39,583 bases of DNA from Spongiibacteraceae bacterium (GTDB taxonomy: Bacteria; Pseudomonadota; Gammaproteobacteria; Pseudomonadales; CAMLJR01), in assembly GCA_036502545.1 (NCBI GenBank), contig DASXYH010000219.1, positions 1 to 39,583 of the forward strand. Reading direction: 5' to 3'. The notes under the pieces are model-generated. The model had not been told where the DNA came from and did not search any database. It saw nothing but the letters and a program-made list of their open reading frames with translations. The position numbers and the translations under genes were made by a program. Numbering within the stretch: the stretch's first letter is position 1; every line of letters starts with the position of its first letter. Of this stretch, positions 142-39,447 are shown in pieces.

Positions 142-415
142 GGAAACTCTGAATTAAGTGTTTTTGGTAAAGGCACGCTGTAGCAGAGCATGAGGCGCCG
201 GAAGGGATTCTCTTTTCCAGGACAAGAAGGTGATCTCATCGAAGCTGCGGTGCCATTCGTCAGCGGAGAAGCCGATGAATTCTACTAGGTCGATCACACC
301 GAGGCTATTTGAATGCTCGCCACGGAAGTCCTGAAAAAGAGAATCCCTTCCGGCGCCAACCCGCGGCGAGAACGGTGCGGTAATTAGAGTGGTAAAACAC
401 TTAATCAGAGTTTCT
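142..415 (+). mobile_element. MITE-like structured repeat, copy A (274 bp)
   Basis: Terminal inverted repeats are ggaaactctgaattaagtgttttt (142-165) and aaaacacttaatcagagtttct (394-415). The element is flanked by direct TAAG (138-141 and 416-419). The inner 30-nt inverted repeat, 194-223 vs 328-357, is 29/30 complementary. The element is homologous to 18515-18789 (inverted) and to 39089-39282. Confidence 0.8.
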
Positions 416-14449: not shown

Positions 14450-14516
14450 TTTTCACTCCCTCTGATCCCTTAATCTACCGCACAAATTACTTGTCAATGC
14501 ATAAAATAATTGGTGG

Positions 14517-14566
14517 GTCTCTGTGTCACTTTAAAAAATAACTGTAGAGTCTCTATGTCACTTTAA
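14517..14566. repeat. two 18-bp direct repeats upstream of the RHH gene (candidate operator or iterons)
   Basis: gtctctgtgtcactttaa (14517-14534) and gtctctatgtcactttaa (14549-14566) are 17/18 identical, with starts 32 bp apart. They lie 68-117 bp upstream of the RHH start. Confidence 0.6.
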
Positions 14567-18468: not shown

Positions 18469-18514
18469 GATATGTCGCTCCGCTTAATGGCTGTTATCGA
18501 TTAGAAACTATTAT

Positions 18515-18789
18515 GGAAATTCTGATTAAGTGTTTTTGTTAGCCCGGCCCTTGCACCATTCTTGCAGCGGGGTGGCGCCGTTGGGGGTTCTCTTTTTCAG
18601 GACTTCCGTTGCGAGCATTCCGAAAGCTTCGATGTAGTCGGCCTAGCGGAATTCGACGACTTCTCCGCTGACGAATGGCACCGCGGCTTCGTTTAGATCA
18701 CCTTCTTGTCCTGAAAAAGAGAACCCCCAACGGCGCCTCATGTTCTGCTACAAGGTGCCATAAAAAGAAAACACTTAATCAGAGTTTCC
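18515..18789 (-). mobile_element. MITE-like structured repeat, copy B (275 bp, inverted relative to copy A)
   Basis: TIRs are ggaaattctgattaagtgttttt (18515-18537) and aaaacacttaatcagagtttcc (18768-18789). The element is flanked by direct TTAT (18511-18514 and 18790-18793). The inner 30-nt inverted repeat, 18574-18603 vs 18708-18737, is perfectly complementary. The core is the reverse complement of the copy A core. Confidence 0.85.
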
Positions 18790-18852
18790 TTATCAATTAG
18801 TGACTGCTATCGATTATGTTGATGTTTGTACGTTGAATATTTTTCAACAAAA

Positions 18853-28138: not shown

Positions 28139-28215
<77 letters not shown>

Positions 28216-35594: not shown

Positions 35595-37259
35595 TCAATC
35601 ATCCGCATAAATATCCCTATCCTTCGTCTCCGGTATAAAAACAATCCCAACAATAAAAGTCATTAACGCGCACACAGCCGGATACCACAAGCCAAAATAA
35701 ATATTACCGGTCGCGGCGACCATCGCGAAGGCGGAGGCGGGCAATAATCCGCCGACCCAGCCGCTGCCGATGTGATACGGCATCGACATCGCGGTGTAGC
35801 GAATGCGGGTTGGAAATAATTCGACGAGGGCGGCGGCGATCGGGCCGTAGGTCATCGCGGCGTATAAGCCCAATATCACGAGCAGCAACACCACCATCGG
35901 CCAATTGATTTTCGTGGCGTCGGCGTGGTCGGGATAGCCCGCTTGTTTAATGGCGGCGCTCATTTGCGTATTGAATGCGGCGAGTTGCGCGGCGAATTCT
36001 TCTTTCGATAATCCGGTGCCTTCGAAACTGTTGATCGTCGTGTCGCCGATTTTTATTGAGGCGATTGTTCCTGGCACGGCATTTTGATTGGTATAGCTGA
36101 CGCTGCTGCGCGCGAGAAATGCTTTGGCGATATCGCACGAGCTGGTGAATTGCGCGGTGCCGACCGGATTGAATTGAAACGAACATGTTTGTGGATCGGC
36201 GAATACCTGCACCGGCGCGTTTTGCTGCGCTTGTGCCAGCGCCGGGTTGGCGTTTTGCGTAATGGCTTTGAAGATTGGCATATAGCTAAATGCCGCGAGC
36301 AGACAACCGGTCATGATGATCGGTTTGCGGCCGAGTTTATCGGATAGCGCGCCGAATAAAACGTATAGCGGTGTTGTCAGCGCGACCGATATTCCGATCA
36401 ATAAATTTGCACTGAGTCCATCGACTTTCAATGTCTGCGTCAAAAAAAACAACGCATAAAATTGCGCGGTGTACCACGCGGTGGCTTGACCGGCGGTAAG
36501 GCCGAACAAAGCAAAAAACACCAGCTTTACATTACGCCATTCGCCGAACGTTTCGCGCAGCGGCGCCTTCGATGTTTTGCCTTCCGCTTTGATACGCAGA
36601 AATACCGGCGATTCGCTCAGCGATAAGCGAATCCATACCGAGATCGCGAGCAAAAATACCGAGATCAAAAATGGAATGCGCCAACCCCAATCCGCGAACA
36701 CTTCTTCACCGAGATATTTGCGTGCGCCGATGATGATGACGAGCGATAACAGCAATCCGACATTCGCGGTGGTTTGAATCCAGCCGGTATATAAGCCGCG
36801 TTTGCGTTGCGGCGCATGTTCCGCAACATATGTTGCCGCGCCGCCGTATTCGCCGCCGAGCGCGAGACCTTGCGCGAGCCGCAGCAATACCAATGCAATC
36901 GGCGCGGCGATGCCGATGCTGTGATACGAAGGCAGGCAGCCGACGAAAAATGTCGACAGGCCCATGATTATTATCGTGATAAGAAATGTATGTTTGCGGC
37001 CGACGCGATCGCCGAGCCGGCCGAATACCAGCGCGCCGAACGGGCGCACCGCGAAGCCGGCGGAAAATGCGAGCAGTGCAAAAATAAATGCGGCGGTTTC
37101 ATTCACGCCGGAAAAAAATTGTTTGCTGGTGATCGCGGCGAGCGAGCCGTATAAAAAGAAATCATACCATTCGAACATGGTGCCGAGCGCCGAGGCGAAA
37201 ATTACTTTGCGTTCGGCGCGCGTGATGCGAGTTGCTGCAGTCATTTCCAATTGTTGCAT
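35595..37259 (-). CDS. MFS transporter, metabolite:H+ symporter (MHS/ProP-like) family, paralog 1
   Basis: 554 aa. Motifs are FEWYDFFLYGSLA, GRLGDRVGRK and LGGEYGGAATYVAEHAP. A roughly 110-aa hydrophilic insert lies between late TM helices. An in-frame ATG at 37244 is an alternative start. Confidence 0.85.
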   Translation of the reverse strand: MQQLEMTAATRITRAERKVIFASALGTMFEWYDFFLYGSLAAITSKQFFSGVNETAAFIFALLAFSAGFAVRPFGALVFGRLGDRVGRKHTFLITIIIMGLSTFFVGCLPSYHSIGIAAPIALVLLRLAQGLALGGEYGGAATYVAEHAPQRKRGLYTGWIQTTANVGLLLSLVIIIGARKYLGEEVFADWGWRIPFLISVFLLAISVWIRLSLSESPVFLRIKAEGKTSKAPLRETFGEWRNVKLVFFALFGLTAGQATAWYTAQFYALFFLTQTLKVDGLSANLLIGISVALTTPLYVLFGALSDKLGRKPIIMTGCLLAAFSYMPIFKAITQNANPALAQAQQNAPVQVFADPQTCSFQFNPVGTAQFTSSCDIAKAFLARSSVSYTNQNAVPGTIASIKIGDTTINSFEGTGLSKEEFAAQLAAFNTQMSAAIKQAGYPDHADATKINWPMVVLLLVILGLYAAMTYGPIAAALVELFPTRIRYTAMSMPYHIGSGWVGGLLPASAFAMVAATGNIYFGLWYPAVCALMTFIVGIVFIPETKDRDIYADD

Positions 37260-37281: not shown

Positions 37282-38937
37282 TCAATCGTGCTGATAGATA
37301 TCGACGTCTTTGGTTTCGCGAATGCACAGCGTGCCGATGACTAGTGTCATCGTCGCCACCACAATCGGATACCAAAGACCGTAATAAATATCGCCGGTCG
37401 CGGCCACCATCGCGAATGCGGTGGTCGGCAAAAAACCACCGAACCAGCCGTTGCCGATGTGATACGGCAGCGACATCGACGAGTAGCGAATGCGTGTGGG
37501 AAATAATTCAACCAGAATGGCGGCGATCGGGCCGTATACCATCGTCACGTAAAGAACGAGGAGCGTCAGCAATACGATAACCATCGGTTTATTGATTTGC
37601 GCCGGATCGGCCTTGGCCGGGTAGCCCGCCGCGCTGACTGCATCGCCGAGTTGTTTGTTGAAGGCATCCGAGCGCTGCTTGAATTCTTCTTTGCTTAAGC
37701 TCGCGCCTTCGAAACTCTCGATGACGGTGTCGCCGATTTTCACCGAAGCCACCGCGCCTCGCGGCAATACATTGTTCGCATAATTCACGCTGTTTTTTGC
37801 CAGAAACGATTTGACGATATCGCACGAGTTGGTGAAACGCGTCTTGCCGACCGGATCGAATTGAAACGAGCATGCGACGGGATCGGCATTCACGACCACC
37901 GGCGCATTCGTCTGCGCGGTTTCGAGGGCGGGATTGGCAAAATGCGTGAGCCCTTTGAAAATCGGAAAATACGTCAGCGCGGCGAGCAGACAACCGGCCA
38001 TGATGATCGGCTTGCGGCCGATTCGGTCCGATAGTCCGCCGAAAATAACGAAGAACGGCGCCGCGATTAGCAGCGATATCGCGATATAAATATTCGCGGC
38101 CGCATCGTTAACCTTCAATATTTTGGTGAGAAAAAATAATGCGTAGAACTGGCCGGTGTACCACACGACTGCCTGACCAGCGGTAAGCCCGAACAGCGCA
38201 AGAATAACAATTTTCAAATTTTTCCATTGCCCGAACGATTCGCGCAGTGGCATTTTCGATTGCTTGCCTTCGGCCTTCATGCGTTGAAATGCGGGCGATT
38301 CGCTCAGCGAAAGACGAATCCACACCGAGATGGCCAACAGCAGCGACGACACTAAAAATGGCACGCGCCATCCCCAAGCTGCAAAATCATCTTCGCCGAT
38401 GAGCGTGCGCGTCAGCAGAATAACCAGCAACGATAAAAATAATCCCAGCGTTGCCGTGGTTTGAATCCAACTCGTGAACAGGCCGCGTTTACCGTGCGGC
38501 GCATGTTCCGCCACATAGGTTGCGGCGCCGCCGTACTCGCCGCCCAGCGCAAGCCCTTGCAGCAAACGCAGGCCGATCAAAATCACCGGTGCGGCGAGGC
38601 CGATCGATGCATATGACGGCAGGCAGCCGACGACAAAAGTCGATAGGCCCATGATCAGAATTGTGACGAGGAACGTGTATTTGCGTCCGACCAGATCGCC
38701 GAGCCGGCCAAATACCAAGGCACCGAACGGCCGCACGGCAAATCCAGCCGCGAACGCGAGCAATGCGAAAATGAATGCTGCGGTGTCGTTGACGCCGGAA
38801 AAAAATTGCTTGCTGATAATTGCGGCGAGCGAGCCGTACAGATAAAAGTCGTACCATTCGAATACGGTGCCGAGCGATGAAGCGAATACCACTTTGCGTT
38901 CGGCGTTGGTCATGATGGGCGTTTGCTGATTTTGCAA
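37282..38937 (-). CDS. MFS transporter, MHS/ProP-like family, paralog 2 (tandem duplicate)
   Basis: 551 aa, collinear with paralog 1 throughout. TTG 38937 is preceded by AAGGAG at 6 nt. An in-frame ATG at 38913 is an alternative start. Confidence 0.85.
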   Translation of the reverse strand: MQNQQTPIMTNAERKVVFASSLGTVFEWYDFYLYGSLAAIISKQFFSGVNDTAAFIFALLAFAAGFAVRPFGALVFGRLGDLVGRKYTFLVTILIMGLSTFVVGCLPSYASIGLAAPVILIGLRLLQGLALGGEYGGAATYVAEHAPHGKRGLFTSWIQTTATLGLFLSLLVILLTRTLIGEDDFAAWGWRVPFLVSSLLLAISVWIRLSLSESPAFQRMKAEGKQSKMPLRESFGQWKNLKIVILALFGLTAGQAVVWYTGQFYALFFLTKILKVNDAAANIYIAISLLIAAPFFVIFGGLSDRIGRKPIIMAGCLLAALTYFPIFKGLTHFANPALETAQTNAPVVVNADPVACSFQFDPVGKTRFTNSCDIVKSFLAKNSVNYANNVLPRGAVASVKIGDTVIESFEGASLSKEEFKQRSDAFNKQLGDAVSAAGYPAKADPAQINKPMVIVLLTLLVLYVTMVYGPIAAILVELFPTRIRYSSMSLPYHIGNGWFGGFLPTTAFAMVAATGDIYYGLWYPIVVATMTLVIGTLCIRETKDVDIYQHD

Positions 38938-39088
38938 GAGCTGCTCCTTACCGATTTATTGTTGTGTCTGTGCGTGCCGGTATTGTTCACTTTGCGCGGC
39001 CAGAGTAGAACAACAGCACTGTCGCTCGCAATAAGACACTACGAATCGCTATACCATTTTTAGGTTTTGACGATGTTGGGTGACGAAA

Positions 39089-39282
39089 GCGCGAAGAGGG
39101 GGTTCTCTTTTTCGGGACAAGAAGGTGATGTTATCGAAGCTGTGGTGCAATCGTCCCCGGAGAAGTCATCGAGTACTGCTAGGCCGACTACTCCGCGCTT
39201 TCGGCGTGCTTGCCACGGAAGTCCGGAAAAAGAGAACCCCCTCTTCGCGCAACCATCTCCGAGCGTGCGACGAATTCAGTGG
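39089..39282 (+). mobile_element. divergent or degenerate copy C of the MITE-like repeat (inner stem, core and right arm; no recognisable TIRs)
   Basis: The inner inverted repeat, 39089-39118 vs 39221-39250, is 29/30 complementary. The core is homologous to copy A in the same orientation. The right arm aaccatctccgagcgtgcgacgaattcagtgg is alignable to copy A 358-392. The terminal 'ctgattaagtg' motif is absent. Confidence 0.65.
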
Positions 39283-39447
39283 CTCAAGCTTTTAAAAGCC
39301 CGGCGATAGCCAACTTGGCTTAGGCCTTTTGGACTATGAATTTCGCGCGCATATGCGCTAACGTGAACGCCATTGCAATAGCGCTGCGGCGCGGTTGCAC
39401 ATCGTCCCGAACGCTTACGTGTCCAGTCTTACGCAGGAAAATAGATC

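Follow-up and report, generated by a model that had tools for sequence, protein, structure and literature searches.

Several described systems resemble the repeat family reported here. The BrickBuilt/MITEPgRS elements of Porphyromonas gingivalis (PMC4596501) are likewise short, lack a transposase, carry IS5-family terminal inverted repeats (TIRs), occupy many intergenic sites and have an inner sequence unrelated to that of the parent insertion sequence (IS). Their inner sequence is a different one; ours contains a palindromic core of 164 bp, with a 104-nt centre that may lie either way round, and no cognate IS was found in the genome. IS5 of Escherichia coli has YTAR as its published target and duplicates these 4 bp (PMC5009759), as our elements do, and the ends of both begin GGAA...GA..AAG; the present elements differ from IS5 in measuring only 274 bp and in lacking a transposase.

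Two further comparisons concern hairpin-forming repeats. The Correia/NEMIS elements of Neisseria, 100-160 bp long and with TIRs of ~26 bp, are also abundant hairpin-forming MITEs that adjoin genes and have modular end variants, but their TIRs are unlike ours, and they duplicate TA. Their long hairpin, when present in transcripts, is an RNase III substrate; we know of no description of a flipping centre in these elements. REPINs share with our family inverted arms ~100 nt apart that evolve as a complementary pair, restriction to a genus, copy numbers of tens to hundreds and a frequent location downstream of genes. However, REPINs lack TIRs and target duplications, both of which are present here, and are accompanied by a REP-flanked RAYT gene, which is not seen here.

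The DNA that we analysed, hereafter the window, is a stretch of 39,583 nt that constitutes contig C219 of a 3.08-Mb Spongiibacteraceae assembly in 365 contigs, a fragmented MAG that is 93% complete. Three copies of the repeat, A, B and C, lie in it. Our preferred account as a whole, which we regard as quite probable, is that of an IS5-type MITE: mobilised in trans, expanded long ago, flipped in its core by a process at the DNA level and purged from promoters.

Anatomy and size of the family

The whole of copy A was delimited by its TIRs and 4-bp flanks, read from the sequence. The parts of the three copies are:

138-141: target-site duplication to the left of copy A, TAAG, repeated at 416-419
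142-415, plus strand: copy A, whole element
142-164, plus strand: left TIR of copy A, GGAAACTCTGAATTAAGTGTTTT, with a 1-nt insertion relative to the 22-nt family consensus
165-193, plus strand: left subterminal segment (Lsub) of copy A
194-223, plus strand: inner arm IRa of copy A, 30 nt, 97% complementary to 328-357, with covariation seen
224-327, plus strand: centre of copy A, 104 nt, conserved in sequence; its orientation here defines 'flip'
328-357, plus strand: inner arm IRb of copy A, 30 nt
358 to about 393, plus strand: right subterminal segment (Rsub) of copy A
about 394-415, minus strand: right TIR of copy A, AAAACACTTAATCAGAGTTTCT, which reads inward as AGAAACTCTGATTAAGTGTTTT
416-419: right target-site duplication of copy A, TAAG
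18511-18514: left target-site duplication of copy B, TTAT
18515-18789, minus strand: copy B, whole element in the 'flip' state, lying in the opposite orientation to A
18515-18536 and 18768-18789: TIRs of copy B
18574-18603 and 18708-18737: arms of copy B, 100% complementary
18604-18707: centre of copy B
18790-18793: right target-site duplication of copy B, TTAT
about 39053-39307 (outer limits approximate), plus strand: copy C, the same core in a 'type 2' shell without the IS5 TIRs
39089-39250: core of copy C, with arms at 39089-39118 and 39221-39250 (97% complementary) and centre at 39119-39220

In element-relative terms (copy A numbering) the parts are the TIR at 1-23, Lsub at 24-52, IRa at 53-82, the centre at 83-186, IRb at 187-216, Rsub at 217 to about 251 and the second TIR at about 252-274. 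The design of the family is modular. Inside the TIRs lie subterminal segments that are asymmetric and, further in, a perfect inverted repeat of 30 bp around a centre of 104 nt; the inverted repeat and the centre that it encloses make up the 164-bp core. The shell around this core has polarity, because Lsub and Rsub are unlike.

A first-pass annotation, made from the window alone, had described A and B as MITE-like copies with TIRs in inverted orientation. The TIRs, 22-23 bp long, and an inverted alignment of A with B along the entire length (237 nt, 81%) bore this out. Three ungapped matches to the TIR 22-mer were found in the window at no more than three mismatches, compared with 0.00 expected from shuffles; a 1-nt insertion sets the fourth TIR apart. 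Copy C had been assigned to the same family, and this was correct for its 164-bp core; C has different ends without IS5 TIRs, and what it has in common with A and B is confined to the 30-bp inner arms and the centre.

The annotation had proposed counting copies by BLASTN, and such a search of the own genome found 107 loci on many contigs, of which 55 were at least 240 bp long and 13 lay at contig ends. The core was complete in 81 loci. The TIR matched 93 times in this genome, including 32 convergent pairs that represent elements with both TIRs; 31 of these two-TIR elements measured 253-285 bp, and the remaining one was a 153-bp centre deletion. Every one of the 29 unpaired TIRs ran into the interior of a MITE and none into an IS. 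The copies differ pairwise by ~12%. This repeat family explains the fragmentation of the assembly into 365 contigs, 13 of its loci being at contig ends, and it supplies a covariance model and a consensus for masking in annotation.

The 4-bp target-site duplications reported for A (TAAG) and B (TTAT) could be read directly from the sequence. For copy A, a flank of TTAAG (137-141 and 415-419) is equally good if the right TIR is taken to be 1 base shorter. Across the genome, when the conserved TCTGATTAAGTG block was used to set the element boundaries, the two 4-bp flanks agreed in 13 of the 32 two-TIR elements, whereas shuffled pairings averaged 4.4 and never exceeded 11 in 2000 shuffles; the same 32 elements gave no duplication signal at 2, 3, 5 or 6 bp.

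The earlier statement that the copies encode no transposase also held, as they showed neither a coding signal nor a period-3 pattern. We considered a coding role for the centre and rejected it. Both strands of the consensus are open, but variability across the 81 copies has no period of three, copies in the congener G006 contain 1-nt and 2-nt indels, and every frame is broken between species.

The family thus combines what characterises MITEs: a length below 500 bp without a transposase gene, TIRs, a target duplication of fixed length and many dispersed copies. We conclude that A and B are ~274-bp non-autonomous transposons (MITEs) with 22-bp IS5-group ends. As an IS5-type MITE the element is an ordinary kind of selfish DNA; the family itself is new. 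Comparison with plasmids, phages and E. coli records and repeats revealed nothing similar. The flanks of copy B had only paralogue-level matches in congeners (65-70% nucleotide identity), and none of the metagenome contigs searched carried a copy B flank. An exact-protein look-up of the genes flanking A and B returned no record for one; the other led to a Logan contig of 1.7 kb, which begins precisely at the right boundary of the element.

The IS5 link and the search for a transposase

The flanks of the 32 two-TIR elements are rich in YTAR tetranucleotides, with TTAA 9, TTAG 4, CTAG 3 and CTAA 2 on the left and TTAA 11, CTAG 5, TTAG 4 and CTAA 1 on the right; TAAG beside copy A and TTAT beside copy B come close to YTAR without matching it. 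Among 401 genomes of the order, searched for the TIR with one mismatch allowed, the present genome had 70 matches, and any of 12 others had at most three, mostly a single one.

Two of these isolated matches are the left end of an IS of ~1.19 kb in G132, a genome from a different genus within the order. The TIR consensus agrees with this left end at each of its first 17 nt (17/17); the IS has CTAG flanks and the end GGAAACTCTGATTAAGTC. Its transposase begins MSQLTFAEAEYSNKKRQTRREKFL, has an N-terminus typical of IS5 and scores 251.8 bits on NCBIfam model NF033581 (IS5 family), for which the cut-off is 140. Past the first 17 nt, the MITE has no similarity to the G132 IS. The end of a partner IS, as implied by the TIR of the MITE, would read GGAAACTCTGATTAAGTG. 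The E. coli IS5 end presumably has ~10 of its first 16 bases in common with this TIR.

An IS5-like partner is therefore supported by the YTAR flanks and by the 17-nt identity of the TIR with the end of an IS5-family IS. The first-pass annotation had left the choice between an IS5- and an IS701-like transposase; the flanks, the G132 end and the NF033581 match sustain the first of these, and IS701 is needless for explaining the data.

The exact 20-mer end also bounds unrelated hairpin elements of 50-120 bp in Acidobacteriaceae and in Burkholderiales MAGs (L078-L083). Its presence on unrelated short MITEs marks it as a generic IS5-group end that has repeatedly given rise to such elements. With G329 (L032) and G393 (L041) included, the unrelated mini-elements that have this IS5-type end, GGAAAYTCTGATTAAGT, measure 40-130 bp and reach into distant phyla; some consist of hardly anything but two TIRs and a short intervening hairpin. 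At G030:C69:12268-12317 (L037/L042/L044), three 16-nt units resembling TGAAACTCTGATTAAGTG follow one another head to tail, as tandem repeats of a word like the TIR.

A search of the own genome for an IS with matching TIRs, which the annotation had also suggested, found none, nor did this 93%-complete, fragmented MAG contain a matching transposase. Relatives of the G132 transposase in the 13 genomes of the genus (12 of them congeners) amounted to one 87-aa fragment. Separately, contig C29 (G000) begins within an IS, of which the 3' half remains at positions 1-700; this remnant encodes a truncated DDE_Tnp_1 transposase (18-629) and has an end unlike the TIR of the MITE. We considered this fragment, the sole DDE_Tnp_1 match in the genome, as the autonomous partner and rejected it, as its ends do not fit.

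Because no cognate transposase was found in the own lineage, mobilisation there can only be inferred. By analogy with IS5 biology, an IS5-type DDE transposase would have acted in trans by binding both TIRs, and the element would have inserted at a YTAR tetranucleotide and duplicated those 4 bp; in the present lineage, the family would have grown in this way to ~100 loci. Given the lack of a matching transposase and the ~12% divergence among copies, the burst probably dates from long ago and the family is by now largely immobile; its partner has probably been lost, although it could be unassembled instead.

We also weighed a system in which the core is a REPIN-like doublet moved by a RAYT (IS200-like Y1) transposase and the TIRs are incidental. 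The genome does contain two Y1_Tnp-type genes, GTAG occurs inside Lsub, and the hairpin falls within the REPIN size range, which as reportedly given by Bertels and Rainey in 2011 would accommodate 30-bp arms ~100 nt apart. However, the element and its arms are absent from the flanks of both Y1 genes, TIRs and 4-bp YTAR duplications are not products of HUH/Y1 transposition, and the TIR matches an IS5-family IS. We consider a REPIN/RAYT origin very improbable. The two Y1_Tnp (IS200/RAYT-like) genes encode ~230-255 aa and lie at C139:7377-8144 and C46:2424-3119 of the same assembly (G000), with no obvious flanking repeats.

Orientation of the centre and pairing of the stem

The centre occurs in both orientations, at close to 1:1, within otherwise identical shells. 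Of all 81 cores, 40 were flip, 35 flop and 6 unclassifiable; among the 31 near-full-length two-TIR elements (253-285 bp), 18 were flip and 13 flop. Identity of the centre between flip and flop copies was 0.874, compared with 0.871 and 0.892 within the two states. The two states are scattered over a tree of the cores, which requires 20 changes of state, compared with 25.1 for shuffled labels (~2% of shuffles were as low); this core tree is poorly resolved, and at least three of the changes are forced by well-supported branches.

The assignment of states to loci in a fragmented MAG could partly reflect the choice of the assembler or mixed populations. Both states were also present in G009, a congener whose genome is 99% complete and contains three copies, and in the G006 family, which argues against a pure assembly artefact. 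In two orthologous pairs the state was the same in both species, across 15-30% divergence, which suggests that flipping is slow.

A segment bounded by inverted repeats and found in both orientations at ~1:1 is also what would be expected of an inverton-type regulated switch, in which a site-specific invertase turns a promoter or another directional signal. The element has no sigma-70-like promoter, however, and its copies avoid promoter regions (see below). The centre has no preferred direction relative to tandem neighbour genes (17:15), and its orientation is not associated with local GC skew (p = 0.77). Judged from the ORF list and gene names, the window copies have no recombinase gene next to them, and the slow flipping at the two orthologous pairs is likewise contrary to a switch. 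A regulated switch is, of the explanations that we weighed, the most remote.

The two arms of a copy match one another better than they match the arms of other copies, with 28.6 of 30 positions in Watson-Crick pairing within a copy compared with 26.3 of 30 when the arms are taken from different copies. RNAalifold, applied to 34 cores from four species, kept only a 29-bp stem, with double changes in 19 of 34 predicted pairs, and found no conserved secondary structure in the centre. Changes private to one copy comprised 7 compensated doubles and 25 one-sided singles. Compensated differences also separate species at two orthologous loci, which shows that some compensation occurred in place. The one-sided mismatches are balanced (30 G:T, 25 A:C), a pattern that fits a DNA-level process rather than selection on a single strand of RNA. 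In one copy Rsub borders the core on either side, which extends the palindrome, and another copy has lost its centre.

Template switching between inverted-repeat arms homogenises the arms and inverts the spacer (PMC8604942, PMC5941160); together with arm extension, these are its known products, with recombination as an alternative for long arms (PMC5941160, PMC8604942, PMC13100816). Template-switch ('quasipalindrome') correction (PMC5941160, PMC8794818, PMC8604942) predicts homogenised arms with apparent compensatory changes, an inverted spacer and occasional arm extension, as observed here. Most known cases involve short repeats whose spacers measure just a few bases; our elements have a 104-nt spacer between 30-bp arms, and ~75 paralogues record the process.

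The simplest cause of both the flipping and the paired stem would be such a DNA-level process, whether template switching or recombination between arms. One arm would repeatedly be recopied from the other, which would keep the stem paired while its sequence drifts. The same recopying would invert the centre, leaving about half of the copies flip and half flop, and may at times extend the palindrome into the shell. The ~75 paralogues and few orthologues amount to a natural experiment on arm-to-arm recopying, in which its outcomes are recorded as near-perfect stems with apparent compensation, spacers in both orientations at 1:1 and occasional growth of the palindrome. They also give a caution: stem covariation in repeated elements is not proof of a selected RNA.

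Genomic context and the core in other species

The first-pass annotation placed all copies 5' of genes. This proved to be a local impression only. Genome-wide, 29 copies lie between convergent genes, compared with 10 expected from intergenic length or YTAR count, 32 between tandem genes (35 expected) and 2 between divergent genes (17.5 expected; context chi-square p = 2e-11); these counts rest on a crude ORF caller. Copies A and C, both in divergent regions, were left out of the count because their neighbour genes are cut by contig ends. Selection may have purged copies from promoter regions, leaving survivors mostly downstream of genes, and the avoidance of divergent promoter regions offers a measure of selection on insertions in an uncultured lineage.

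The element itself contains no promoter-like (sigma-70) or terminator-like site. Rfam at the gathering threshold recognised only a tRNA (28139-28212) in the window, and a permissive Rfam scan of 100-460 gave one chance-level match (E = 2.3).

To follow the core beyond its own genome, we used a covariance model of it (R1) on the 13 genomes of the genus and on two other genera of the family. R1 matched ~85 loci in the own genome, ~27 in G006, 3 in G009 and 1 in G007, with weak single matches in two more species, and the core was absent from the two other genera. It is thus kept in 4-6 of the 13 species of the genus, a patchy distribution.

Copy C of the window and the copies of G006 carry the core in a second type of shell, which has ~27 copies in G006 and a few in the own genome. 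The right end of copy C, CAGTGGCTCAAGCTTTTAAAAG, matches the shell of the G006 family. One end of this type 2 shell (39053-39307 in the window; L004, L007, L010 and L047-L061 in G006) resembles TTTTAAAA-CCGATTGAGCCACC..., and the opposite end resembles ...GGCACCCAGCCC..TTTAAAA. The two shell types showed no homology, their alignment scores being those of shuffled sequence. The occurrence of one core in two dissimilar shells is left unexplained by our best account.

Two orthologous insertions document the age of the family. A metagenome scan with the core junction retrieved one contig, Ga0079224_100190151 (L085), which is orthologous to C303:5176-7916 of the own genome (G000) with ~79% identity over 2.7 kb, and which has the element at the same site, in the same state and with decayed TIRs. 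The presence of the element at the same site in a related species indicates that the insertion is older than the species split. The second case is shared by G009 (L002) and G007 (L003), in which the insertion lies just past a stop codon and before the start of an MFS-like gene; the end of the upstream gene has overwritten part of its left TIR.

The first-pass annotation had reasoned that a sequence without further copies, present at syntenic positions in relatives without flanking duplications, would be an ancestral structured element rather than a mobile one. Old copies do occupy syntenic positions in other species, and they stand beside a large, dispersed family with duplications. This combination points to age, not immobility.

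At the two orthologous loci, identity was 0.72-0.87 for the core, 0.56-0.66 for the shell and 0.67-0.86 for the flanking genes. That the core is better conserved than the shell hints at some constraint that a neutral model does not foresee. We therefore weighed the possibility that the 164-bp core is a selected functional module, either an RNA hairpin that is processed by RNase III or protects 3' ends, or a protein-binding DNA hairpin, with the shells as mere vehicles and the covariation as a trace of selection on structure. This would fit a core conserved about as well as the flanking genes, carried inside two unrelated shells and kept in 4-6 of 13 species, as well as the heavy covariation of the stem and the enrichment of copies at the 3' ends of genes.

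Other features of the core run against such a module. The centre has no conserved secondary structure, and there is neither an Rfam match nor a promoter-like or terminator-like site. The centre faces neither way preferentially relative to transcription, mismatches of the G:T and A:C kinds are in balance, and the distribution within the genus is patchy. Within the genome, conservation of the centre (0.876) is no better than that of the TIR and Lsub (0.86-0.88). We consider selection on the structure of the core unlikely as the source of the covariation. The fuller version, in which an independent selected hairpin with a conserved 100-nt loop was acquired by two unrelated shells and is kept at orthologous sites as their ends decay, seems to us equally doubtful. 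If true, the core would be a protein-binding site or a processed RNA hairpin at gene ends, serving either the host or the element, and flipping of the loop would be tolerated since the module works either way round.

Other repeated sequences were noted in the window. On the minus strand, 35595-37259 and 37282-38937 are adjacent paralogous genes of ~550 aa, with 73-76% DNA identity and a period of 1687 bp. The adjacent genes at 755-1840 and 1879-2970 encode paralogous Rieske/VanA-type oxygenases (72% over 110 nt), the first of them labelled by Pfam. Two tandem 32-nt direct repeats, 72% identical, occupy the intergenic positions 14492-14555.
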